Assembly (NCBI GenBank): GCA_019058015.1
Contig: JAHLWH010000107.1
Location: 1 to 36,841 of the forward strand
DNA from: Promethearchaeota archaeon
GTDB taxonomy: Archaea; Asgardarchaeota; Lokiarchaeia; Sigyniarchaeales; SOKP01
Direction: 5' to 3'
Length of the DNA: 36,841 nucleotides
Numbering within the stretch: the stretch's first letter is position 1; each line of letters starts with the position of its first letter. Below are positions 7,247-36,405 of this stretch, one piece after another. Below the pieces are notes generated by a model. That model had not been told where the DNA came from, searched no databases, and saw nothing but the letters and a program-made list of their open reading frames with translations. A program made the translations under genes and the position numbers.

Positions 7247-7669
7247 ATGAGGCAAAGGGGTATTGTTGGTATTTTAGGTTCAGTTGTCGCAATAGTTATT
7301 ATTTTATCAGTTGTTGCTTTTATAATGTTTACTCCTTGAAACTGTGAAATTAATATAATAAGTCCTAGATATTCAGAAGTTTGGGATGAGTTAGGAGATT
7401 ATACAATAATATGGGAAGCATCTGATTCAATTGAAAATGTTAAGATCGAACTCTATAGAGGAAACGATTTTATATTAATAATTTCAAGTAAAACCATTAA
7501 TAATGGTCAATTAAATTTTACGATTAACGAAAGTAATGCGGAATTTCTTAGTGGTCTTAATTTTAGGGTAAAAATAGCCGATTTTAATAATGAAAATAAT
7601 TATGCATTTAGCGATTATTTTACGATTAACATCAAATCTGATAATGGCAATGGTGGTGGATGAGGTTAA
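7247..7669 (+). CDS. Candidate selenoprotein (140 aa, Sec31 and Sec139): N-terminal TM anchor, U-x-C, Kre9/KNH-like Ig-fold domain, C-terminal GGGUG
   Basis: Manual translation: MRQRGIVGILGSVVAIVIILSVVAFIMFTP-U-NCEINIISPRYSEVWDELGDYTIIWEASDSIENVKIELYRGNDFILIISSKTINNGQLNFTINESNAEFLSGLNFRVKIADFNNENNYAFSDYFTINIKSDNGNGGG-U-G*. TGA at 7337-7339 and 7661-7663, TAA at 7667-7669. Strong SD upstream, SECIS-like hairpin downstream. Absent from the ORF track. Confidence 0.8.
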
Positions 7670-7671
7670 AC

Positions 7672-7803
7672 ATGACAAGAAAAAAAATAATTATTATAAG
7701 TTCTGTTATTACCGTCATAGTTTTAATCTATTTAATTCTTAGATTTACAATTTTTACTGAAGGCGGTTTAATTTGATGGTTTAGAGAAATATTCAATTTG
7801 TAA
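7672..7803 (+). CDS. Candidate 43-aa single-pass membrane selenopeptide (Sec35)
   Basis: MTRKKIIIISSVITVIVLIYLILRFTIFTEGGLI-U-WFREIFNL*. GAGGT SD at 7662-7666, ATG 2 nt after the previous stop, TGA at 7774-7776, TAA at 7801-7803. Confidence 0.6.
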
Positions 7804-7807
7804 AAAA

Positions 7808-7883
7808 AACCCAAGATTTAAATGATGAATATTCAAAAATTGTAGGAATATTCGGATCGGAGTGCAACTCCCTTCTCTTGGTT
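7808..7883 (+). ncRNA. Eukaryote-type SECIS element (cis-acting 3'UTR hairpin)
   Basis: Helix I CCAAGA(7811-16)/TCTTGG(7876-81). AUGA at 7822-25. Quartet UGAU/GGAU. Helix II GAATATTC(7827-34)/GAATATTC(7846-53). Apical loop AAAAATTGTAG. GA at 7855-56. Extra hairpin GGAGT-GCA-ACTCC (7859-71) in the internal loop. Confidence 0.8.
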
Positions 7884-8108
7884 ATTAAATTTTTTAAAAA
7901 AAAAGATTTCTTTCAAATAAGCAACACAAGTACAAAAATTAAGTAATATCATAATAGAAATATTTCATTTTTAGCTTTTTAATAATATTTAGATAAAATT
8001 TTATATCGTAAACTTTTATTCTATTTTAAAATCAGTGAAATTTGTAAAAAGCTTAAATAAATTATTAAAATTTATAATAATGGATAATTTTAAATAAGTG
8101 ATTTCCAA

Positions 8109-9125
8109 ATGGAAAATTCTAAAAATCAAGATAAGGATGACCCTGAAAAAATCTATTTTGAGGACATCGTTAATCTAAAGAAGAGTGGTGGGATAACGAT
8201 ACCTAAAAATATTCGAGATGAATTATTTCCTGAATCAATAGAGAATATTTTTTTCAAATTATATGTCCCTAAAGAAAAAGATAAAATAATTTTAGAAATT
8301 TTGCCTGAAGAAGAGGCCAAAAAGCTTTCTGAAGAATTAAAATTAAAGAAAAAAACTCAGCAAATACTAAAGCCGAAATCTAAAGAAGTTGGAGGACGGA
8401 AAAAAAAAGAAAAGGTTTTAGGCCCTCAACCTGACTTTGGTCGTTATTTCGTTTATAATTTTGAAGCTCAGCAAAAACTTAGACCAATATTAGAATCTGT
8501 ATTTTATAAATTTGCTGAGACTCCTATTAATTTTGATGATGCTATGGGACGAATTAAATATGGGTTGGTTTCTTATCTTGGTTCAAATAATATTGAAAAT
8601 GCAAGATTATATTTTTCGGTTATAAACTTCTTATGTGATGTGATTGAGAAATTCAACATACCGAATTTGATAGAGTGGATTAATGATAAGATTATTGATA
8701 ATATAAAAAGTAAATTTCTTTACGAACAATCGTTATTAAGTTTGATCTCAACGTCAAATAAAATGCAAAAATATGAGAAAAGCGAAATATTTGTGAATAA
8801 AATCTTAAATAATATTGACAGTTATTCAAAAAACGAGTTATATAATATTTTAAATTCATTTGAGAATTTAGTAAAAATAGTTTATAAAGATCGTTCCTAT
8901 CCACAAATATTTGAACTAATTAAAGAAAAGTTATTGATTTATCTAAAAGAAATTGAAGATGTTGATTATAAAATACAAATAATTGAGTTGTTAGAGAATC
9001 TTAAATTTATTGAAACTGCATATAATATTGCCAAGGAAATATCAATGAATTTACCTCCAGAGTCACATAGAGTAGAACTTCTGAGAGAAATTGTAAAAAG
9101 ATTACATAAAAAACCGATTGTTTAA
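8109..9125 (+). CDS. AbrB/MazE-like swapped-hairpin N-terminal domain fused to an alpha-helical (TPR-like) domain
   Basis: IVNLKKSGGITIPKNIRDEL...FFKLYV...KIILE, then a Lys-rich linker and a helical C-terminus. Confidence 0.6.
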   Translation: MENSKNQDKDDPEKIYFEDIVNLKKSGGITIPKNIRDELFPESIENIFFKLYVPKEKDKIILEILPEEEAKKLSEELKLKKKTQQILKPKSKEVGGRKKKEKVLGPQPDFGRYFVYNFEAQQKLRPILESVFYKFAETPINFDDAMGRIKYGLVSYLGSNNIENARLYFSVINFLCDVIEKFNIPNLIEWINDKIIDNIKSKFLYEQSLLSLISTSNKMQKYEKSEIFVNKILNNIDSYSKNELYNILNSFENLVKIVYKDRSYPQIFELIKEKLLIYLKEIEDVDYKIQIIELLENLKFIETAYNIAKEISMNLPPESHRVELLREIVKRLHKKPIV

Positions 9126-11344: not shown

Positions 11345-12769
11345 TTGCTACGGCAAATTTATATTATTTATGATAAAAAAATAATTTTTAGTTATTCTTA
11401 TGCATTAGCTTTTAATAATGAGCAATTTAAAAATGTTCAAGACCTATTAAATGAATTTATTGATTTACCAATACCAAATCAGTTTTTTCATCGCCCTTTT
11501 GGAAATTATCAATTGTTTTACATTACAAGAAATAAAATTTTCTATTTAATTATTGCCGATCTTGTTGATAAAAGAGACTATATTAATGAAATTTTAAATA
11601 AAATTACTAAAAGATTTCAAAATTTATTTCCCAATTCTTTAGAGATTAAAGAAAAAAATAAAGAAAAAAATGAATTTATTGAGTTTTTGAAAGATATTCA
11701 TTATGAACTTCATTCAAAGATCGCACTAATAGGACCTTATGGTTCAGGAAAAACAACAATTGCAAATCTTTTAAAATTAAATTTGGAACCAAAAATATTT
11801 ATGAATTTTGCAAAATCTTATAAAATAAGTATTGAAAACTTATATTTTGATTTATGGGACTTCCAATTGGAAGACAATTTTTCACCATTATGGAATAAAT
11901 TTTTAAGTGGTAGTGATTTAATTTTGCTGGTTTTTGACTCTACAAATCATAAAACCAAAACATTGACACATTTTATTAATCTTCAAAAAACCGATGCAAA
12001 ATTTTCAAAACTTATAATATTTGCAAATAAACAAGATTTATCGGAAGCGATAGAAGCTAAACAAATAGAAAAGGAATTTAATTTTCCAGTATTTGGTATT
12101 TCACTTAAAGACTTTGAAATTAAGAATAAATTAATAAAAATTATCTCAAATGAATTAAAGATAAAAAAAGAATTTCCATCAGAATTTGATGATTTATTAA
12201 AAAAAGCAGAAAATGAAGTTATTAATAAAAATTATTCGGAAGCGATTAAACATTTTAATTATTTAAAAAATATTTGCAAAAAGTTTCAAGAATTTATACA
12301 TTTATCTTCTATCGAGCAAAAAATTAGTGAAATCGAAAAATTAATCGAAAAAGAAAAAAAAGAAAAAGAAGTAGAGAAATTTAAGGTTAAAGCTCCTGAA
12401 AAAATTTCATTTTCTCAAAAAGTTTCGGTAAAACCTCTTCCTCCTCAAGATAAAACAACTAAAATAATAACTTCAGAAGAAAAGCCAATTAAAGAAATTG
12501 AAAAAAAGACAAGAAAACAGTTTTTAAAACCACAAGATATTAAGGTTAATCTGGATGCGGTTAAAGAAGATTCAATTATAAAAACTTCATTTGATACGTT
12601 AGAGAGTGAACTATTTTATTTAATAAAAGAAAAACAAGGAATCATAAGTTTAAAATTATGTAAAACTTATGTTGATAGACTACAGAATAAATTGGAACGA
12701 CCATTAACTTCAGTTGATCTTCATAAAGCCGCAGAAATATATTTAAAGAAAAAAAAAATCATCCATTAA
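11345..12769 (+). CDS. Longin-like domain + Arf/Ras-like small GTPase + helical (TPR/MIT-like) fusion
   Basis: N-terminal LRQIYII...IFYLIIAD (longin/sigma-adaptin-like), G1 GPYGSGKTT, G3 WDFQ, G4 NKQD, G5 ISLK. Confidence 0.88.
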   Translation: MLRQIYIIYDKKIIFSYSYALAFNNEQFKNVQDLLNEFIDLPIPNQFFHRPFGNYQLFYITRNKIFYLIIADLVDKRDYINEILNKITKRFQNLFPNSLEIKEKNKEKNEFIEFLKDIHYELHSKIALIGPYGSGKTTIANLLKLNLEPKIFMNFAKSYKISIENLYFDLWDFQLEDNFSPLWNKFLSGSDLILLVFDSTNHKTKTLTHFINLQKTDAKFSKLIIFANKQDLSEAIEAKQIEKEFNFPVFGISLKDFEIKNKLIKIISNELKIKKEFPSEFDDLLKKAENEVINKNYSEAIKHFNYLKNICKKFQEFIHLSSIEQKISEIEKLIEKEKKEKEVEKFKVKAPEKISFSQKVSVKPLPPQDKTTKIITSEEKPIKEIEKKTRKQFLKPQDIKVNLDAVKEDSIIKTSFDTLESELFYLIKEKQGIISLKLCKTYVDRLQNKLERPLTSVDLHKAAEIYLKKKKIIH

Positions 12770-20913: not shown

Positions 20914-22383
20914 TTAAACTTTTTCGTTGGGAGCAACTTTTGTATTTTTAAGATTTTTTAGTTCTACAGCTCTTTTTGCGAGGATGTTTTTTATATTTTC
21001 AATATCCCCATTTATTTTTCGTTTCGCATAAGCCCATAATATAGCTCCAGGCACACCAATAAAAGTAATAACTAAGGATGCTAAAATATAATTCTGTCCG
21101 CTTGCTGAAAGCACAGCTCCTGCAATTAAAGGTCCAGTTCCTTGTCCTAATGTTTCTAAAAATTGATTCCAAGAGGAAACTCTCCCTTGAGCCTCTGGTA
21201 GATTAATTGCTTGTAGAATTGGTGGTTGATTAATTTGATATATTGCTCGAACTGAGCTGATGGAAAACCAGAGAACCCCAGTAATCCAAAATTGAGGGAA
21301 CTGTAATAAAAAAATGAAATTATTGCCTTGTTCTTCAGTAAATCCTGAGTCCCCAAAAGGTACTAAAAAAATAAATAATTGAGCAATAGCAAGCCATATA
21401 ATTGAAAAAACGATTAGATCAAGGCGGATTTGGATATTTTTTTTACCCCATTCATCTGATTTTTTTGCAAAACCTAAAGAACCGAGAAACGCGCCAGGCA
21501 TACCAAATAAAACTACAATAAATGCAGTAGAAACTGAACTAATATTTAATGGAGGTGTTTGCAGATATGGTAATATTAAAAAATTAAGTGTACCTAATAA
21601 GACACAAGTGAATATACCTTCAATAAAGGCAACAACATTAGTTGTCCTTAAAATCGTAGATTTAACTGTTTTTTTTGTTAAACGATAATTATATGTAACG
21701 CTCTTATCTTCAAGTACTTCTGTTAATACATCTAAAGATCGAAATGCTCTCTTGGGTTCATTAATTTTTAAACCAATTATGAATGTGCTTAAAATGACCA
21801 TTATGCCTACACTCCAATAGTAAATTTTCCAGTATCCCGCGTAAATTAAGGATGATGAAATAATCATACCAATAACTAATGCAATTTGGGCTATTGAATG
21901 AAAAATTCCAAAAAATTGAGAACGATTTTCTTTTTCAAGATTATCATTAGTGTAGCTCAATAATATCGGACGGATACCTCCAAGTCCAAACCCCGCTATC
22001 ATATTACATATGAGAAACCACGCCCAAGAAATTATTCCTTCAGCTTCTGGTGCAAAACCATTCAAGAGATAAGCGAATCCAATCAAACTTAAGATAAAAA
22101 GAAATAAATTTTTTCTCGAAAAAAGGTCAGTGAGATGTCCAATAATCATTCCTGAAAAAGCCATTGATAAAAATTTTACTGATATGATTAAACCCATTTC
22201 AAATGCATGGAATTCATCATTAGGCCACATAATTTTGGAGAAATTTATCATATTTAATACAAAAGCAGCCATTGTAAGGGCAATAATACTATATGATAAA
22301 AAAATTGGCCACAATCCTCTTACTGTCGGTGTAATTTCAATTTTCCTTTCTTTTCGGCCGAAAAATTTCTCAATCATTATCAA
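20914..22383 (-). CDS. MFS transporter
   Basis: About 12 TMs; motif A GHLTDLFSRK; RSQFFGIF and QGRVSSWNQFLETLGQGTGPLIAG. Confidence 0.93.
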   Translation of the reverse strand: MIMIEKFFGRKERKIEITPTVRGLWPIFLSYSIIALTMAAFVLNMINFSKIMWPNDEFHAFEMGLIISVKFLSMAFSGMIIGHLTDLFSRKNLFLFILSLIGFAYLLNGFAPEAEGIISWAWFLICNMIAGFGLGGIRPILLSYTNDNLEKENRSQFFGIFHSIAQIALVIGMIISSSLIYAGYWKIYYWSVGIMVILSTFIIGLKINEPKRAFRSLDVLTEVLEDKSVTYNYRLTKKTVKSTILRTTNVVAFIEGIFTCVLLGTLNFLILPYLQTPPLNISSVSTAFIVVLFGMPGAFLGSLGFAKKSDEWGKKNIQIRLDLIVFSIIWLAIAQLFIFLVPFGDSGFTEEQGNNFIFLLQFPQFWITGVLWFSISSVRAIYQINQPPILQAINLPEAQGRVSSWNQFLETLGQGTGPLIAGAVLSASGQNYILASLVITFIGVPGAILWAYAKRKINGDIENIKNILAKRAVELKNLKNTKVAPNEKV

Positions 22384-22466: not shown

Positions 22467-23639
22467 TTACATGATTATTGAACCACAGTTTCTACAGGAT
22501 TTTGTTTCATTATACATTTTCTTCAAGCATGGTTCATGGAAAAACGCATCACAATTCTCGCAACGATAAACATCATACTCTCCCAGAAATATTGATCTAC
22601 ATTGCGAACAAGATTCATCTATTTCAGCAACTTTATTTGGAGGTATTTTAACCATTCGTGTTGATTTTTTATCTTGTTGATCAATAATTTTAATACCAAT
22701 TTTTTCTGTTGAAATAGAACTAATCATTTTCATTATTGATTGAGGTACTCTCAATAAAAAATAACAGAAGGGGCAGCGAAAAATAGAAGTCTCGTATTCT
22801 GACTTCTTTGCCCAGAGTGCAGCGCAGTGTAAATGATACGGTCGGCCACAAGAAGGGCAATAGCGACCACTTGCAAAAAAGTCAGCACCATTAAGAGGAT
22901 TTTTAATTGAGTGGCAAATTTGACATTTTTCCTGACCTTTTCCTCCCATCATTGCTTTAATTTCAGATACTGTTGGACGTCGTAATTCTACTGCAATATC
23001 ATTTACTAACGGAGGAGGATGATCTTCAGATTTATTGGAAGGGAAATAATCTGATGTTTCCTTCAAAGTTTTCTTTGATGCAAATGCTTTACCTGCACTA
23101 ATTAATGCCTTTGAATTATTAAAATAACCAAATTCACCATTTGTCTTTTGAACTATTGTTTTAAGATAGTTTTCTGGATAATGCAAACTCTTACCAATTT
23201 GACATATATCAATAAAAATTCCTAAACCTTGTGCAATGTCAACCATTTTCTCAAGATCTGCTTTAGTATCTTCGATACTTCCATCAGTTATTATATATAT
23301 TCTTTGTACCTTGCCCCCGATTTTCCTCATTTCTTGAACAAGGATTTGTACTGCAAATTTGATCCCTTCAACTAAATTTCCCTGACCCGAAATTTCTATA
23401 TTGTTTAATAATTTAATTAACTTAGTGTCATCACTCAAAAAAGAACTTATTCTTTTTGTACCTTTTCCATATGTAATTAGCATAATTCGGTCTTTAGGAT
23501 CAATTAGAATTTTGGAAGAAATGAAATTTTTTACTGAGTTTAAAGCTACTGACAATCTTCTTGGTTTAAAATCACTTCTAATCATTGAGCGAGAGCAATC
23601 AATGAGAATTATTGTATCTTCAAGTTTAATTTCTTCCAA
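22467..23639 (-). CDS. vWA (Ssl1/p44-Rpn10-like) domain + two RING-like zinc fingers
   Basis: IILIDCSRSMIRSDFKPRRL (MIDAS-like); CQIC...CPSC...HLHC...CPFC; CSQC...CENC...HEPC...CRNC. Confidence 0.88.
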   Translation of the reverse strand: MEEIKLEDTIILIDCSRSMIRSDFKPRRLSVALNSVKNFISSKILIDPKDRIMLITYGKGTKRISSFLSDDTKLIKLLNNIEISGQGNLVEGIKFAVQILVQEMRKIGGKVQRIYIITDGSIEDTKADLEKMVDIAQGLGIFIDICQIGKSLHYPENYLKTIVQKTNGEFGYFNNSKALISAGKAFASKKTLKETSDYFPSNKSEDHPPPLVNDIAVELRRPTVSEIKAMMGGKGQEKCQICHSIKNPLNGADFFASGRYCPSCGRPYHLHCAALWAKKSEYETSIFRCPFCYFLLRVPQSIMKMISSISTEKIGIKIIDQQDKKSTRMVKIPPNKVAEIDESCSQCRSIFLGEYDVYRCENCDAFFHEPCLKKMYNETKSCRNCGSIIM

Positions 23640-23741: not shown

Positions 23742-25109
23742 CTAACGTAGTAAATTTTGAATCTTTTTTATTTGTTGATTTAATTTTATTAATTTCTTTT
23801 CACTTTTTTCTTTATCAAATTCAGAAGTTAATATATCCTTAATTTCAAATAAATATTTTAAAGTTTTTATATAATTTTTTTTCTTTTCTGCTTTAATTGA
23901 TTGCTCTCTTGCAAATTCTAATTCAATTTCTTTATTAAATTTTAAGATTTCTAAAATCTGAAAAGATATTTTTCCGATTTCAGCATGTGCATTATATTTT
24001 TTAGCATAAACAAGTGCCTTTTCATATTCATTTAAAGCATCTTGATACGCAGAATTTTTATTAGCAACTTCAGCTTTGTTAAGATAGAATATCATTTTTT
24101 GATGAGATTCTTCAATACTTATTGATGTGCTTTCATTTAGAACCTCTGATAATTCTTCTATCTCCAAAATTTTCCGAATTTCGTATTCTCTTTCTTGTTT
24201 TTTTTGTCTTCTTATATCAAGTTCATATCTCTGAAATTGTAAATCTTTACTAAGAATTATATTATTTCTAAGCATTTGATAAATATTCCAAAGTATTTCT
24301 TCTCTTGGTATAATTCCTAATATTCGAGCAGTTGTATCTAATATGTTTGGAATGAAAAAATATGGCTTTTCCTTTAGCAAATCATTACTATATTCAAACA
24401 CAGCTTTTTGAATGAGAGAGAAGTTGTCGATGATATTGGGAGGAATTTGAGCAGATAAAGTCTGTGGATAAATTAAATTTACTTCAAACATTTTTTCAAT
24501 CCATTTTTTAACAGATTTAAACAATTCTAGGTTACCTGTTTTTTCAAATTCTTTCAATTTATCTCCATAGATCTTTTCAAAATTTTCTATAAAATGTGAT
24601 AATAATTCTCTTAAATTAGATGAAGCACTATTATCTAGTATTAGACAGATTCTACAAAACTTACCATTCCGTAAGAGAATATTAAAATCTTTATATTGGA
24701 ATTCATAAAATTTTCTATCATGGATATCCTCAGAAGTTCGTTTTTTATCAGCTATTGTTAATTTTTCAGATGAAAATAGAACATTTGCTTGAATAAATCC
24801 TGATAATAAAGTTGCATCAATCGGGTGATCACCAACGGCCATATTATATAAAGGTATTCCATTATTTGAAAGAATTATAATATGCCTTATATTTAAAATA
24901 TCTTTATATTTTTTCCAAATATATCTATAATTCATTTCTTGTCTTTTTATATCAGAATCCTGTTCTATTGTCTCTATTTTGTCAATTATAAATTCTGCAT
25001 TTTTAAATTTTTTAAATATACATCTTGGGCAATAATCTGGATAATCTAGAGGACAAACTGATTTATCTACTCCACATTCATAACCTAAAACCAATTTAAA
25101 GTAAGTCAA
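23742..25109 (-). CDS. Longin-like domain + TPR-like C-terminus, with an N-terminal Cys cluster
   Basis: IRHIIILSNNGIPLY...LLSGFIQA...EFQYKDFNILLRNGKFCRICLIL is longin-like; YQDALNEYEKAL is TPR-like; N-terminal C-x6-C-x7-CPRC. Confidence 0.75.
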   Translation of the reverse strand: MTYFKLVLGYECGVDKSVCPLDYPDYCPRCIFKKFKNAEFIIDKIETIEQDSDIKRQEMNYRYIWKKYKDILNIRHIIILSNNGIPLYNMAVGDHPIDATLLSGFIQANVLFSSEKLTIADKKRTSEDIHDRKFYEFQYKDFNILLRNGKFCRICLILDNSASSNLRELLSHFIENFEKIYGDKLKEFEKTGNLELFKSVKKWIEKMFEVNLIYPQTLSAQIPPNIIDNFSLIQKAVFEYSNDLLKEKPYFFIPNILDTTARILGIIPREEILWNIYQMLRNNIILSKDLQFQRYELDIRRQKKQEREYEIRKILEIEELSEVLNESTSISIEESHQKMIFYLNKAEVANKNSAYQDALNEYEKALVYAKKYNAHAEIGKISFQILEILKFNKEIELEFAREQSIKAEKKKNYIKTLKYLFEIKDILTSEFDKEKSEKKLIKLNQQIKKIQNLLR

Positions 25110-25363: not shown

Positions 25364-28300
25364 ATGGTAATACAAGTGAATATCAAAAAATCAAAATTGG
25401 AATGTATCTTTTTGGTCATAATTTTAACATTTTTAATTTTGAATTCTTTGATAATAACTCCTAACAATTTAACTTTTCAAAATAATGAGAATTCTCTTGA
25501 TTCTCCAATTAAATATAAAAAGGATAATCCGACAATGTCTCAAACCGATTTGGACAATCCAATTTATGGAGATGGATTAAATCAAACGGTAAGAGCATAT
25601 ATGAAAAATATCTCGACCTCAATAATGACTAATGGTTCTTTTAATATCACTGCACCTAATTTAAACTCGAAATTGACAGCTGGTGAATTTAATTTCACAT
25701 TTGATCGAAATTATAATACTACATATGAAATCGAAGATGATTCTGTATATGATTATCCAATTATTAAATTTCCGTTTGATAATGCAACAGAGAATTTAAT
25801 TAGTGGTAACAACATTTCGGGTGGGATAGCGGAGATTACAGATGATAATCCTTCATCATATTGGAAAATAAATTCTACATCTTCTCCTGGTGTTATTAAT
25901 TTTACAATTACTGCCAATTTTTCCAGTTCAAAAGATTTATTCTCTTTTAATTATTATAATATTAGTAGAATTGATGTAGATTTTACAATTAACTTAACAA
26001 AAGATGTTTATCTAACTGTTAAAATTTGGGATAGACTTGAGGATATATGGAATAATATCTCGTCAGATATCTTTATAAATAGTTCAGATTTAAATGAAAA
26101 GACAATAAATCTGGACATAATTAATAAAAATTTGAGATATATAAACTCTACAGGATATAGTATTTTTCAATTTTACTTTAGAAATACTATGGATAGTTTC
26201 AATTTGAGTTTTTATGAATTCGACGCTTTTGCTTCTTCAGTTTATGAATTACCAATCACCAACATGACTTATGTTGCATTAGAATTTGATTTAAGAGGAA
26301 ATGCAACCATAAATGGTTTTCAAACATGGATAAGATCTTTAAATTTATCAGCAGCCAATAATTCAAAATTAGTTATTTCACTTTATCGAGCAAATGCTAC
26401 AGTCCTAAGAAGCCAAATAAACGATGATTCTTCCCCAGCGGAAAATATTTTAATTAAACCAGAAATTTTTATTGATTCTATTGAAATATTGAATTATACT
26501 AATGATTCAATAGTAAATTTTAGTTTTACTACACCGATAACAAATCTTAATGTAAGTAATTATTTTTTTGTAATAAAATCAAACATTAGCACGGACGCCT
26601 TTCATTTAATGATTTTACCACAGACGGCTCCACCACCTCAAGGTTTTGATCCTGATCAGAAAAATAATCATTTATTACTTAAAACCGAAACCGATGGCTC
26701 TTCTTGGGTAAAATGTCAAGAGTTAACTTATGGACAGTTTGATGCAAGTCCTTTTATTATTAATGTAACCCGTGGATGGATACCTAATGATATTTTAAAT
26801 ATAACTATAGAAAATAAAACATTATCAAACATGGAAATTAGCATCTATCCATATAATCAATCTTCAACATACATTTGGGGTTTAGGACAATGGATAGGAG
26901 AATTTGAAGAACCAATAAATACATCAAAAGGTGCAAAATTTGAAGTTGTTTTGAATTGGAATAAAAATATTACATCTCACCTATTTTTTAGTGTTTCGTA
27001 CTCTGTAACAGCTTATTCATTAGAAACTGCTACTGCACATTATAACTGCACGTATGACGATCTTCCAAAATGGGAGTTGAACTATACATTTAATAATGAA
27101 AGGAGCTATTTCATCACTAATTGGTCGTTTTTGGAATTTTGGTATATATATCCTTCATATTGGACACCATATGATTTAATCTGTGCAGATTATAAATCAA
27201 AATATGATGTAAATTCTTCAGGCACATTAATTGAAAATGGTTCCTTCGGTAAATATGTTGTTCAAAATAATACAATTATCAATACCACAAATCCAAATCA
27301 TAGTGGGAATTATTCTCTAAAATTAACCAGTTTTAATTGTATTTACAATATGACATCTTATTTAAATTTTAATGATTCATATTATTGGCCAACTAATGGT
27401 TTTATGTTGGGTGATAATGTCTCAATAAGTCTAAATGTTCAAGATCATGATGTGAAACCAGTTTCTGATGGAATTGCCAATGCAAGTTTATTTTTACCGA
27501 ATGGTACAAAATTAATTAATTGGAACCTTTCGGATTCTAAAGGAGTAATTGATAATACTTTTGATGTTACAACTTATAATTTCGATAATTCGAATATTTT
27601 TAATTCGACCTTTTCAAACAAAAAAGGTTCTTACACAATTGGTTTCTTTTGGGAAAATGGAACTGCAATAGGCTACAAGAAAAAAACTTTCTATTTATCA
27701 GATTATGACTTTAATATAATTGATTGCACATATGATAAAGAGGAAGGAGGAAATATTTTTGAGGGAAATCTAATTAGGGCTGACACTGACTTAACTAATT
27801 ACTCTCTATTAATTGCAACTGTTAATGAATCAAAGAACATTAATACATTTACAATTAATAATACAATCTCTGAACATTTTTCAAATGATGATAATTTGAT
27901 TGTAGAAATTACTAATTTCCTTCAAAATGAAACGATCATAAGCCCAGGTGAAGATATTTCTTTTAAGATTAATGTAAAAAATAAAGATTTATATTTTCCT
28001 TTTAATGTAAGATTGTCTATTCAATTAGTTTCACCCATTAATCTAAATTGGATTATGACTGAAGTAAATACTCCTAATCAATTATTAAATTTTACAGGAA
28101 CACCTAATGATTCATTTGAATTTAATTATAACATAACTTTTATTAATAAAAATCCAGATGGGACATGGTACGGAATAAATTCACCTATTAGACTTGGTGG
28201 TTGTCAAACAAAAGTTAAAGTATTTATTGAAAATGAATTTTGTGGTTCTTGGATAAATAATGATTATTCAATTATAATAAATGATAATGAAACTGTTTTT

Positions 28301-29386
28301 GAAGGGGAGATTCTTTCTTTTAAATACTTAGAAGATTTAACATCAAGAGGGTTAGCCCTCAATTTTAATAGAGATGAATTTAATATGCCAGGAATTACGT
28401 CTTTTTTCATGAATATAATAGATGAATACTACATGAGTACATTTAATCAAATTAATGAATCATTCTCGTTTAAACTTGATAGCAGTTTTAAAAACTTATC
28501 AGTTAATCCTAGTGAAATTACTTGGAGTAATAAATTTAATTTAACAGCATATTTACAAACGGAGAATGCACAACCTCTAGAGGATAAGGAAATTAACTAT
28601 TACTTCTTAAACTCTAACAATGAATGGCAAGAACTTTTAGGACCCGATGGAGATAATTATGATAGTACAGATATAAATGGAAGGACAATTGTTGAGGTAG
28701 ATTCAAATCAATTCTTGAAAAATTCATCTGGAAAAATTAAATTGAATTGGACAGGAAATCCATATATATTATCTTCTGAAATTAATTATTCTTTTAATTT
28801 TATTATTTTTTCAAACGAAATTGTTGTAGAATTTTCGACAAATAATACAATATTTTTGCGAAATAAAGAAAATCAGATAAATATTAAAATAAAAAATGTT
28901 GGTACGTCTATACTTACAGATATTAACATTACATTAATATCAAAATTTTCCTATTCAATATCCAAATACAATAATTATGAATTAAATTATCTCGAACCAC
29001 AAGAAACTACTGAAATATCCTATAAAATTTTTATTCCTAATATAGAAGATAATAATATTACTATTTTAAGCAATATTTCTTTTAATACTTTACAAACTAA
29101 TGAAAAAGATGAATTACAATTTTTTCTTACATATGATTTAGATAGTGAATCTCCCTTTACTCAGATTATACAATTATCAATATTATTTCTTTTTATTGGT
29201 ATTAGCTTGTTTTATGTATTAGCTCTCTTATATAGAATAAGAATAAACAAAAAGATAGAAGAAATTTTTGAAAAACCTCCTGAAAGAAAAAGGAAGGGTA
29301 AATATGTGAAAGTTTCTGAATTACGAGCAAAAGAAATAGAGAAAAAAGATTTAGATGAGCTTCTTAAAGAAGAAAAGATAAAATGA
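25364..29386 (+). CDS. Large secreted, membrane-anchored surface glycoprotein (1340 aa)
   Basis: N-terminal hydrophobic signal, dozens of N-x-S/T sequons, Ig/CARDB-like C-terminal segment (IKIKNVG...L.PQE), C-terminal TM and a charged tail. Confidence 0.85.
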   Translation: MVIQVNIKKSKLECIFLVIILTFLILNSLIITPNNLTFQNNENSLDSPIKYKKDNPTMSQTDLDNPIYGDGLNQTVRAYMKNISTSIMTNGSFNITAPNLNSKLTAGEFNFTFDRNYNTTYEIEDDSVYDYPIIKFPFDNATENLISGNNISGGIAEITDDNPSSYWKINSTSSPGVINFTITANFSSSKDLFSFNYYNISRIDVDFTINLTKDVYLTVKIWDRLEDIWNNISSDIFINSSDLNEKTINLDIINKNLRYINSTGYSIFQFYFRNTMDSFNLSFYEFDAFASSVYELPITNMTYVALEFDLRGNATINGFQTWIRSLNLSAANNSKLVISLYRANATVLRSQINDDSSPAENILIKPEIFIDSIEILNYTNDSIVNFSFTTPITNLNVSNYFFVIKSNISTDAFHLMILPQTAPPPQGFDPDQKNNHLLLKTETDGSSWVKCQELTYGQFDASPFIINVTRGWIPNDILNITIENKTLSNMEISIYPYNQSSTYIWGLGQWIGEFEEPINTSKGAKFEVVLNWNKNITSHLFFSVSYSVTAYSLETATAHYNCTYDDLPKWELNYTFNNERSYFITNWSFLEFWYIYPSYWTPYDLICADYKSKYDVNSSGTLIENGSFGKYVVQNNTIINTTNPNHSGNYSLKLTSFNCIYNMTSYLNFNDSYYWPTNGFMLGDNVSISLNVQDHDVKPVSDGIANASLFLPNGTKLINWNLSDSKGVIDNTFDVTTYNFDNSNIFNSTFSNKKGSYTIGFFWENGTAIGYKKKTFYLSDYDFNIIDCTYDKEEGGNIFEGNLIRADTDLTNYSLLIATVNESKNINTFTINNTISEHFSNDDNLIVEITNFLQNETIISPGEDISFKINVKNKDLYFPFNVRLSIQLVSPINLNWIMTEVNTPNQLLNFTGTPNDSFEFNYNITFINKNPDGTWYGINSPIRLGGCQTKVKVFIENEFCGSWINNDYSIIINDNETVFEGEILSFKYLEDLTSRGLALNFNRDEFNMPGITSFFMNIIDEYYMSTFNQINESFSFKLDSSFKNLSVNPSEITWSNKFNLTAYLQTENAQPLEDKEINYYFLNSNNEWQELLGPDGDNYDSTDINGRTIVEVDSNQFLKNSSGKIKLNWTGNPYILSSEINYSFNFIIFSNEIVVEFSTNNTIFLRNKENQINIKIKNVGTSILTDINITLISKFSYSISKYNNYELNYLEPQETTEISYKIFIPNIEDNNITILSNISFNTLQTNEKDELQFFLTYDLDSESPFTQIIQLSILFLFIGISLFYVLALLYRIRINKKIEEIFEKPPERKRKGKYVKVSELRAKEIEKKDLDELLKEEKIK

Positions 29387-35169: not shown

Positions 35170-36405
35170 TTAATGATATAATAACTCTGTAATGCTTTTA
35201 GTTGATGATGGGAGGTGCCTACTTTCTTTGCGCAAATAATTCATTGCTTTTTCTAATCCTTCTAATGTTAAATTGAACATAGGGAAAATTTTGGATAATA
35301 TTTTCCGGGTATAACATGACCATTCGGGGTTTATAATCTCTGGATTTAACCATACAGAGAAAGGAAAATGATCTTTTAATTTTTGCATATAAATTACCCC
35401 CGGAATTTCATTGCGATGATAGTAGTAAATCGAACCATATCGGTCTGATAATTCATATGGTGCCATCGCTGCGTCTCCAACAATTATTACTCTATACTTT
35501 GAATCATATTTACGAATAAAATCTTCAAATAAAATACTACGATTATCTTCTCGAGCTGCGGTCTCATATAATCGTTCATAGATACAATTATGAAAATAAT
35601 AATATTTAAAATCACGAAAATGAGATAAATGATGAGCAGCAGAAAATAATTTGTTAACAAGCGTAGCATAAGGGGTCATACTACCACCTACATCAAGAAG
35701 TAATAGTACTTTTAGGTTGTTTTTTCTTCTTTTATGAAAAACTAATTCAATATCTCCGCAATTTTTGCAAGTCTCATCAATTGTTTTATCTAGATCTAAC
35801 TCATCTTGCTTTCCAATTTCTTCTAATTTTTTCAAACGTTTCAAAGCGACTTTAATTTGCCTTGTATCTAAAACTATATCTTTTCGATAATCTTTGAAAA
35901 TTCTTTTTTCTGCAATTTGAACCGCCATTCTTGCACCACTAGTGGCACCAACTCTGATGCCAAATGGGTTTTTTCCAGAGTGCCCCCAAGGAGATGTTCC
36001 CTTTTGCCCTATAAAACGATTGCCAAAATTATGAGGTTCATCTTGTTCATTCATGATTTTTTCAAAATATTCCCTTAATTCTTCTAAATCTTTAGGAATC
36101 ATACCCGGCGGCATTTGAAGCTGAAAAGGGAGATTATCAAAATCTAATGGTTGATTTAACCAGTCCCATATCTCGTCTTTTATGGATTGGGGGAATTCTA
36201 CATCCATATCCTTATAAAAAGAAGCAAAACATCTATCAAATATATCAAAATCATGTTCTGATTTCACAAGAATACTCCGACAAGTATAATAATATGAAAC
36301 CATATCGGAAATAAGTCCTTTATCAAATGCTTCTAATAATGTTAAAAATTCCGTTATGCTAACTGGTAATTTTCCCTTTAAAAAATAAAAGAAATCAACA
36401 AACAT
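35170..36405 (-). CDS. vWA domain protein, CoxE-like partner of MoxR
   Basis: LDLDKTIDET, LLLLDVGGSM, YYYFHNCIY, IIVGDAAMAPYEL, WLNP. Confidence 0.92.
   Translation of the reverse strand: MFVDFFYFLKGKLPVSITEFLTLLEAFDKGLISDMVSYYYTCRSILVKSEHDFDIFDRCFASFYKDMDVEFPQSIKDEIWDWLNQPLDFDNLPFQLQMPPGMIPKDLEELREYFEKIMNEQDEPHNFGNRFIGQKGTSPWGHSGKNPFGIRVGATSGARMAVQIAEKRIFKDYRKDIVLDTRQIKVALKRLKKLEEIGKQDELDLDKTIDETCKNCGDIELVFHKRRKNNLKVLLLLDVGGSMTPYATLVNKLFSAAHHLSHFRDFKYYYFHNCIYERLYETAAREDNRSILFEDFIRKYDSKYRVIIVGDAAMAPYELSDRYGSIYYYHRNEIPGVIYMQKLKDHFPFSVWLNPEIINPEWSCYTRKILSKIFPMFNLTLEGLEKAMNYLRKESRHLPSSTKSITELLYH

Follow-up and report, generated by a model that had tools for sequence, protein, structure and literature searches.

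We examined a 36,841-nucleotide stretch of DNA from a Promethearchaeota archaeon (positions 1 to 36,841 of contig JAHLWH010000107.1, assembly GCA_019058015.1; hereafter the window), which carries on its reverse strand a gene for a protein composed of a von Willebrand factor A (vWA) domain followed by two predicted RING-type zinc fingers (Table 1). An earlier note, prepared from the letters of the DNA and its translated open reading frames alone, had likened this protein to the TFIIH subunit p44/Ssl1 and had offered a vWA-RING ubiquitin ligase as the alternative. The strings that it quoted are all present in the translation: IILIDCSRSMIRSDFKPRRL at residues 10-29, the middle string CQICHS...GRYCPSC...HLHC...CPFC at residues 239-292, and the C-terminal string CSQC...YRCENCDAFFHEPC...CRNC at residues 344-385. 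The three-part layout that it had drawn from them, namely a vWA domain, then a C4HC3 unit of RING-like type and, at the C-terminus, a further RING-like unit, was borne out.

Conservation of the vWA-double-RING gene

The open reading frame is a real, strongly constrained gene, and its features exceed chance by a wide margin. In a word-indexed search across 5.8 billion proteins, 329 homologues were found at E <= 0.001, and among the 120 matches listed of these 329 the identity to the query was 53-99%, the query coverage 95-100% and the length 373-423 aa. Where named, the homologues are annotated as 'VWA domain-containing protein' and come from Promethearchaeota or Lokiarchaeota metagenome-assembled genomes, with a few bearing the submitter labels Thor-, Hod- or Hermodarchaeota. 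We used two alignments of the family, A1 with 44 sequences and A2 with 77 sequences of the C-terminal half built from genomic loci. The TTG start is supported by A1, where the orthologues share their first position (M or L). All 16 zinc ligands were invariant in 44/44 sequences of A1 and 77/77 of A2, and they fall into one set in the middle of the protein (C239, C242, C261, C264, H269, C272, C289, C292) and a second set near its end (C344, C347, C360, C363, H368, C371, C382, C385).

Table 1. Positions of the vWA-double-RING gene, its parts and other genes in the window, counted from the first letter of the window; residues are those of the 390-aa protein.
Feature	Residues	Positions	Strand	Basis and remarks
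Whole vWA-double-RING gene	1-390	22467..23639	(-)	Open reading frame list and translation; 390 aa, TTG start, stop codon 22467-22469
vWA domain, alternating beta-alpha fold, Rpn10/p44/BatA type	7-190	23070..23621	(-)	Pfam, model, VIA-align
DxSxS motif D14-C-S16-R-S18, loop of MIDAS type (metal ion-dependent adhesion site) at end of first strand	14-18	23586..23600	(-)	Alignment A1
Linker	191-234	22938..23069	(-)	Model and alignment A1
Finger 1, predicted C4HC3 cross-brace RING	235-301	22737..22937	(-)	Invariance, VIA-align, HMMER
Finger 2 with leading strand, predicted C4HC3 cross-brace RING-like	318-390	22470..22688	(-)	Invariance, Pfam, VIA-align
455-aa protein, directly upstream, same strand		23742-25109	(-)	No Pfam or NCBIfam match
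Major facilitator superfamily (MFS) transporter, between vWA-RING gene and methionyl-tRNA synthetase gene		20914-22383	(-)	MFS_1 103.5 bits
474-aa protein, longin-like and Arf/Roc/Ras-type GTPase		11345-12769	(+)	Pfam: longin-like 23.8 bits (sub-cut-off), Arf 51.9 bits
1340-aa conserved divergent neighbour		25364-29386	(+)	No meaningful Pfam match; 69/82 sources
Second, unrelated vWA protein		35170-36405	(-)	Pfam, CoxE-like VWA domain 36.2 bits

The vWA domain

A full-length AlphaFold2 model built from A1 reached a mean predicted local distance difference test score (pLDDT) of 79 and showed a classical vWA fold at residues 7-185, in blocks mostly of pLDDT 80-92. The linker that follows was disordered at residues 191-207 (pLDDT below 50) and then carries an LRRP segment that is invariant in A1 (L219, R220, R221, P222) and a helix at 224-231 leading into finger 1. 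Residues 9-174 matched the Pfam families VWA_2 (62.8 bits), VWA (53.5 bits) and Ssl1 (PF04056; 33.0 bits, cut-off 27). The Ssl1 model was found at E <= 1 in 44/44 family members, more weakly than VWA_2 and VWA, and its cut-off was also passed by bacterial and other archaeal vWA proteins, namely the bacterial P0261 (27.8 bits) and P0158 (30.7 bits). The sole NCBIfam matches were BatA-type vWA models, far under their cut-offs. D14, S16 and S18 of the DxSxS motif, together with D119, lie in the metal-site region of the domain and are invariant in 44/44 sequences of A1. Read against what we take to be the canonical motif, the position of the classical MIDAS threonine appears to be occupied by an invariant glycine, G87, and metal binding by this vWA domain is not established.

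Comparison with known structures placed two eukaryotic families level. A single-sequence search of the PDB gave Rpn10 as the best match of the domain (E 4e-9 to 8e-6) and p44 at E about 0.06, and the identity was 20-24% to Rpn10 vs 15-17% to p44. With the family profile, Rpn10 scored 47.5 bits (S. pombe) and 40.6 bits (human), human p44 scored 45.5 bits and yeast Ssl1 25-28 bits. By VIA-align the Rpn10 vWA domain superimposed at Z 23.3 (root-mean-square deviation (rmsd) 2.4, 184 aligned, 22% identity) and the Ssl1 vWA domain 4wfq at Z 23.2 (rmsd 2.6, 182 aligned, 15% identity), followed by p34, INTS14, BatB and archaeal ArnB at Z 20-22. Rpn10 and p44 therefore tie for the vWA domain, a difference below 1 Z unit being counted as a tie in all VIA-align comparisons reported here. 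An exhaustive profile search of 1.84 billion representatives gave 2718 matches at E <= 0.001, of which the best 150 looked prokaryotic. When 46 of those 150 were scanned with Pfam, neither C1_4 (PF07975, the p44 C-terminal domain) nor any other p44- or Rpn10-specific family was found (0/46). Bacterial-type vWA proteins, associated with BatA, DUF1194 or DUF58, scored 60-90 bits with the family profile, above Rpn10 or p44 in the PDB search.

The vWA domain is thus of the BatA/Rpn10/p44 subclass, without any feature that points to p44 in particular. The earlier note had compared the start of the domain with those of Ssl1/p44 and Rpn10; the D-x-S...D-[FY]-x-P-x-R-L start is indeed common to Rpn10. 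The note had also held that grouping of the domain with generic prokaryotic vWA proteins or with Rpn10, together with fingers that do not superimpose on p44, would speak against a TFIIH relative. For the domain, Rpn10 ties with p44, and the profile scores of prokaryotic vWA proteins are higher.

The two zinc fingers

A second model, of residues 208-390 alone and built from A2, had a mean pLDDT of 82 and a predicted template modelling score (pTM) of 0.69. In the full-length model a low-confidence stretch at 312-323 separates two small beta/alpha zinc modules, and the models support two predicted cross-brace RING folds with eight zinc ligands each. The fingers have in common the pattern C-x2-C ... 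C-x2-C-x4-H-x2-C ... C-x2-C, which is the spacing of PHD fingers. Pfam gave only sub-cut-off matches to them, to Prok-RING_1 (24.2 bits), C1_1 (22.7 bits), PHD_NSD (22.5 bits), zf-RING_2 (21.6 bits) and PHD (PF00628; 17.9 bits vs cut-off 24). The Prok-RING_1 (PF14446) match lies on finger 2, under the cut-off of 29.1; this family was found at E <= 1 in 42/44 members (best E 3.6e-6) and reached 27.3 bits on a paralogue in the same genome. Sub-cut-off PHD and C1 matches were present in 44/44 members.

Structure searches with the finger-only model pointed to RINGs. The Foldseek list consisted nearly entirely of RINGs of ubiquitin ligases (E3), including RNF165, Nse1, FANCL, RNF38, HRD1 and listerin. 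VIA-align, which is independent of Foldseek, was run against 48,161 PDB representatives, and all 50 chains listed were cross-brace zinc or U-box domains, mostly E3 RINGs; the top three were p44 C-terminal RINGs (Z 7.2, 7.2 and 7.0). Against Z 6-7 for RINGs, the PHD finger of PHF7 reached Z 4.7 and protein kinase C (PKC) C1 domains Z 4.8-4.9. In the ESM Atlas the top named cluster for the fingers alone scored 0.75, with C1_4 on 32% of its members, which is within the chance range.

Finger 1 has the spacing C239-x2-C242-x18-C261-x2-C264-x4-H269-x2-C272-x16-C289-x2-C292. Its best structural matches were catalytic E3 RINGs solved with a ubiquitin-conjugating enzyme (E2) or on substrate: the FANCL RING in complex with the E2 Ube2T (4ccg_Y; Z 6.6, rmsd 1.8, 62 aligned, 23% identity) and listerin (Z 5.9-6.1, rmsd 1.6-2.3, 29-30% identity, with rmsd 1.6 over 57 residues at 30%). 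Three further residues of finger 1 are invariant in A1 and A2: I241, between ligands 1 and 2; W276, four residues past ligand 6; and P290, directly past ligand 7. Presumably these are the E2-contact positions described for c-Cbl and FANCL. HMMER placed them in register with FANCL (C-x-I-C, H-x2-C-x3-W, C-P-x-C) at E 0.08, so that the register is suggestive only, and in sequence finger 1 shows no significant similarity to the RINGs of FANCL and listerin (E 0.08-0.2). While the C4HC3 ligand pattern and the Ile/Trp/Pro positions of finger 1 are shared with FANCL and listerin, the rest of those proteins is unrelated. We conclude from the models that finger 1 has a RING fold of the FANCL/listerin C4HC3 type. 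The earlier note had seen here the central finger of p44 in expanded form; the C4HC3 RING stands, but it matches the FANCL and listerin RINGs and does not superimpose on the central zinc finger of p44.

Finger 2 is spaced C344-x2-C347-x12-C360-x2-C363-x4-H368-x2-C371-x10-C382-x2-C385. It superimposed on p44 C-terminal RINGs at Z 7.0-7.8 (61-67 aligned, rmsd 2.7-3.8), including C. thermophilum 5nus_B (Z 7.2), human 8ebs_E (Z 7.2) and other human entries (Z up to 7.8), with its residues 318-386 aligning with p44 residues 319-386. E3 RINGs followed at Z 6.0-6.5, within about 1 Z unit of the p44 RINGs. The A2 profile gave a different picture for this finger, its best PDB matches being PKC C1 domains (E 0.001), with PHD fingers and Arkadia also present, and no p44 chain was found among its 31 PDB matches at E <= 10. 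C1_4 had no match in the protein at E <= 1, nor at the locus in a whole-genome search. At the positions of the Ile, Trp and Pro of finger 1, finger 2 has Tyr or Gln, Met and Arg, and it looks less like an E2 binder. We conclude that finger 2 is predicted to be a RING fold, nominally most like the C-terminal RING of p44 and tied with ordinary E3 RINGs. The parallel that had been drawn between this unit and the p44 RING thus holds insofar as p44 RINGs are the best structural matches, but these stand within about 1 Z unit of E3 RINGs and no C1_4 match was found.

Distribution and paralogues

In a sample of 81 genomes of the phylum, the family profile found matches at E <= 1e-10 in 11/11 genomes of the GTDB family to which the source genome belongs (own genome included) and in 0/70 genomes of 19 other GTDB families. 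To call the gene widespread in Asgard archaea is not justified; it was found in one family of this GTDB-based sample. The source genome (3.84 Mb, 283 contigs, 94% complete) holds, besides the window gene (661 bits), a 400-aa paralogue of the same architecture (235 bits, on contig C39) and a 455-aa relative whose vWA domain is degenerate (23 bits, on contig C200). Orthologue (661-719 bits) and paralogue (235-270 bits) were both present in 11/11 carrier genomes, and five more carriers reached through loci also hold both copies, giving 16/16 carriers examined.

The finger profile alone recovered the same family distribution together with many weaker matches in open reading frames of 340-690 aa, and in other GTDB families it found four weak matches only (E 4e-6 to 8e-4). 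By motif counting, 75 relatives have a vWA or vWA-like domain and then a C4HC3 finger near residue 230-300, with about half of them lacking DxSxS. Two relatives exceeded the zf-RING_2 cut-off of 27.3 bits (P0132, 32.4 bits; P0141, 33.2 bits). In a quick tree of 63 prokaryotic relatives, with support from the Shimodaira-Hasegawa-like approximate likelihood ratio test (SH-aLRT) only, the window clade comprised 17 rows with support 98 and stood apart from the paralogue clade and from the degenerate-vWA clade. The gene is a member of a superfamily of vWA-plus-RING-like proteins, and one lokiarchaeal (Promethearchaeota) family shows an expansion of it.

Some further features of these relatives were recorded. 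The 340-690-aa proteins, with a degenerate vWA-like domain, one C4HC3 finger and often a zinc-ribbon end (e.g. L085 1063-2430 (-), on C200), have the appearance of a lineage-specific expansion. The paralogue (L002 805-2007 (-)) has an extra CxxC in finger 1 and a sub-cut-off Tfb4 match of 21-22 bits, and its divergent neighbour (L002 2388-3470 (+)) resembles by eye an Arf-type small GTPase with a roadblock-like C-terminal part. One locus, L006, has a second family copy at 7288-8460 (-), on the opposite strand a few kb downstream. Several submitter labels of the carriers look inconsistent (Thor-, Odin- (L047, with a genome of about 3.3 Mb), Hod- and Hermodarchaeota, and a Nanopelagicaceae bacterium (L031)), the gene order of the loci being near-identical.

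A candidate E3 ligase or adaptor

The source genome encodes an E1-like protein (ubiquitin-activating enzyme type) and an E2 (UQ_con 89.2 bits), both on contig C195. This E2 was present in 25/25 genomes of the same family, own genome included, with a second match in 19/25, and its identity was 79-97% in 16 sequences aligned. An Asgard cascade of E1, E2 and RING E3 has been reconstituted in vitro (bioRxiv 10.1101/2023.07.25.550441). We tentatively favour reading the protein as a vWA-RING E3 ligase, or an E3-like adaptor, within the Asgard ubiquitin system, and give this somewhat less than an even chance, because of the predicted RING folds of both fingers, the catalytic E3 RINGs matched by finger 1, the invariant residues at the putative E2-contact positions, the E1 and E2 in the genome, the relatives that pass a RING cut-off, the vWA-Prok-RING_1 fusions of bacteria and the reconstituted cascade. 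For E2 binding and ligase activity, the alignment of I241, W276 and P290 with FANCL is suggestive only.

The protein would then act as a cytoplasmic, zinc-dependent adaptor in which a protein-binding vWA domain precedes two RING-type fingers. Finger 1 may recruit the ubiquitin-charged E2 through the classical Ile/Trp/Pro surface, and the vWA domain with its conserved DxSxS loop may hold a substrate or partner. Finger 2, most like the protein-binding RING of p44, could mediate self-association or association with the paralogue. If the ligase reading is true, a substrate-binding architecture of vWA plus tandem RINGs is added to the small set of archaeal ubiquitin ligases, and the superfamily shows that RING-like proteins have expanded in a lineage-specific way within one lokiarchaeal family.

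Several observations weigh against a ligase. Both fingers fall below every Pfam RING or PHD cut-off, the finger-only model had no Foldseek match at E <= 0.001, and all finger Z-scores were < 8. The position past the last ligand of finger 1, that of the 'linchpin' residue, holds Tyr or Phe and not Arg or Lys. The E1 and E2 genes lie on another contig than the vWA-RING gene, with no genomic linkage, and a Pfam scan of the window found no gene for ubiquitin, E1, E2, JAB, XPD, XPB or MoxR. Many RING folds, moreover, are non-catalytic, p44 itself, the nominally best match of finger 2, being an example. The ligase alternative of the earlier note has become the favoured reading on the strength of the predicted RING folds, the invariant Ile/Trp/Pro and the E1 and E2 of the genome, but the missing linkage and the sub-cut-off Pfam scores count against it.

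A rival reading is a non-catalytic scaffold, in which the fingers bind protein, lipid or nucleic acid in the manner of PHD, C1 or p44-RING domains, the vWA domain offers a second surface, and the protein assembles a complex with no transfer of ubiquitin. The PHD-type spacing of both fingers, the PHD and C1 matches in every member and the PKC C1 and PHD matches of the finger 2 profile are consistent with it, as is the lack of linkage to ubiquitin genes. So is the structural likeness of finger 2 to the p44 RING, a domain described in a TFIIH study as contributing to the p44-p34 interaction (PMC6422496). Set against this, RING E3 domains ranked well above PHD and C1 domains in the structure searches, and an invariant Ile, Trp and Pro in finger 1 would have less reason to be kept in a pure scaffold. 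We regard the scaffold as a possible though on the whole unlikely account.

Two features of the ubiquitin genes are recorded here. The E2 gene (L102 6214-6723 (-), on C195) lacks an ATG, GTG or TTG codon at the conserved N-terminus, where the aligned orthologues begin with M or I, which suggests that the start may be of the ATT/ATA/ATC type in some genomes. The E1-like gene lies 750 bases from the E2 gene, on the opposite strand.

Likeness to TFIIH p44/Ssl1 and to Rpn10

The case for p44 is strongest when the protein is compared as a whole. Full-length p44/Ssl1 chains came first in Foldseek with the full model (E 5e-18 to 1e-14, over 387-415 alignment columns), ahead of the vWA-only Rpn10 chains (E 7e-13), because the alignment runs on through the fingers. 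VIA-align likewise aligned 241-247 residues of p44 vs about 184 of vWA-only chains, the additional ~63 being finger 2. For the whole protein the nearest named ESM Atlas clusters after its own Asgard clusters were eukaryotic TF2H2 (0.91), a lead and not a test. The Foldseek comparison with Ssl1, Rpn10 and FANCL that the earlier note had proposed thus puts full-length p44/Ssl1 at the top for the whole model, but gives no significant match for the fingers taken alone.

In the TFIIH study cited above, p44 is described as consisting of an XPD-binding vWFA domain, an extended zinc finger interlocking with that of p34, and a C-terminal RING, with an N-terminal extension towards XPB also included in the model (PMC6422496). 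The Asgard protein and p44/Ssl1 have in common a vWA domain, zinc modules and a cross-brace RING-like domain at the C-terminus, which follow one another in the same order and occupy almost the same positions, and the Ssl1 Pfam model lies above cut-off in the Asgard protein. The latter differs as follows: the centre of p44 is an extended zinc finger (eZnF) and that of the Asgard protein a full predicted C4HC3 RING; the C-terminal domain is C4HC3, that of p44 being C4C4; and the Asgard vWA domain begins at residue 7, without an N-terminal extension. Superposition of the fingers on p44, whose failure the earlier note had counted as refuting, gave a divided answer, with finger 2 superimposing and finger 1 failing to do so on the p44 central finger.

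These data bear on the possibility that the protein is a true relative of p44/Ssl1 which pairs with its paralogue as p44 does with p34 and serves as a scaffold or regulator of archaeal XPD/XPB. Consistent with it are the whole-protein alignments, the p44 RINGs at the head of 48,161 chains, the Ssl1 match throughout the family and a same-architecture paralogue in every carrier examined. Tfb4 matched weakly (22.4 bits on the paralogue, cut-off 27; E <= 1 in 10/44 members), and an XPD-type DEAD_2 domain (99.8 bits) is encoded on contig C272 of the source genome. Against these points, p44 is at best level with Rpn10 in the vWA domain and is, like Rpn10, outscored by prokaryotic vWA proteins, the Ssl1 cut-off is also passed by a bacterial protein, and the lead of p44 over E3 RINGs in finger 2 is at most 1 Z unit. 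The full RING in place of the central zinc finger, the absence of a C1_4 match and of the N-terminal extension, and the confinement to one GTDB family count in the same direction. A Tfb2 search found no match in the source genome and none in the control genomes either, so it is uninformative. The proposal of an archaeal relative of a TFIIH subunit therefore keeps the domain order and the fold but, given the vWA ties, the replaced central finger and the lack of a C1_4 match, stops short of membership in p44, and we hold such a relationship to be improbable.

A bolder form of this idea is that the two vWA-double-RING paralogues correspond to the TFIIH pair p44/p34, either as its counterpart in archaea or as a sister lineage that has survived. 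One paralogue would dock by its C-terminal RING on the other's vWA domain, and together they would scaffold archaeal XPD/XPB. We consider this a long shot; if such pairing were true, the TFIIH core of vWA plus RING would be older than eukaryotes and would have arisen from a ubiquitin-ligase-like protein.

It is very improbable that the protein is a ubiquitin receptor of the Rpn10 kind, docking on the proteasome of archaea or on its ATPase: Rpn10 (PSMD4) supplies the best single-sequence matches of the vWA domain, but p44 ties with it by family profile, and past the vWA domain Rpn10 has ubiquitin-interacting motifs, whereas the Asgard protein has two RING-type fingers and no ubiquitin-interacting motif family among its Pfam matches at E <= 1. 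Rpn10 furthermore docks on lid subunits of the proteasome.

Relation to bacterial vWA-RING proteins and novelty

Single-finger vWA-RING proteins already exist in bacteria. Two with a vWA domain and Prok-RING_1 matched the family profile at 75.2 bits (P0224) and 62.4 bits (P0269), and their Prok-RING_1 matches of 30.3 and 33.7 bits, respectively, are above cut-off. They differ from the Asgard protein in having a single finger and in being shorter (322-361 aa). Of the 63 members of the P0269 cluster, one is named as coming from a Dehalococcoidia bacterium. No MoxR-type ATPase was found beside the vWA-double-RING gene when the window proteins were scanned with Pfam. What is new here is a tandem-RING, lineage-restricted Asgard version of the vWA-RING architecture.

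The literature searched did not yield any account of a p44/Ssl1-like or vWA-RING protein from Asgard archaea; fusions of vWA and RING may already be covered in a 2011 survey of prokaryotic RINGs (Burroughs et al.). To our knowledge, and in that same literature, no prokaryotic relatives of p44 and p34 have been described, and the XPB and XPD helicases are the only parts of TFIIH that we know archaea to have. The terms TFIIH, GTF2H, Ssl1 and Rpn10 do not occur in PMC13734099, and the 'TFIIH-like' Asgard genes of another paper are XPB homologues (PMC9258230). With the same domain order, the same vWA subclass and a p44-like C-terminal RING, the gene makes the origin of this part of TFIIH testable. 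We keep the claim modest because the gene is restricted to one family and every comparison contains ties.

Genomic context

The context was compared across 82 sources, namely 80 orthologue loci, the paralogue locus and the window, with many loci ending at contig ends. The common order is a large divergent protein (about 1340-1370 aa), then an M20 peptidase, the vWA-RING gene and methionyl-tRNA synthetase (MetRS) on the same strand, then a 414-aa protein. MetRS was a neighbour in 74 of the 82, the M20 peptidase in 72, the large protein in 69 and the 414-aa protein in 66. This conserved order was seen only among the family's own loci, and we therefore read the MetRS/M20 arrangement as inherited and not as a functional operon.

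The window departs from the common order at two points. An MFS transporter gene is inserted only here and in L003-L005, with MetRS directly next in most loci. The 455-aa protein upstream replaces the M20 peptidase in the window and in L003-L006 and is unrelated to it (hhalign probability 0.1%); it was considered as a conserved partner and rejected, as it occurs in 5/82 sources. By eye this protein has an N-terminal Cys cluster, a segment reminiscent of roadblock or longin domains and a Lys/Glu-rich C-terminal half. By eye, the 1340-aa protein has a hydrophobic segment close to either end and is very rich in N-x-S/T sequons, and it is probably a glycosylated surface protein. Elsewhere in the window, the combination of a longin-like domain and a GTPase in the 474-aa protein is a typical eukaryote-like signature of Asgard archaea.

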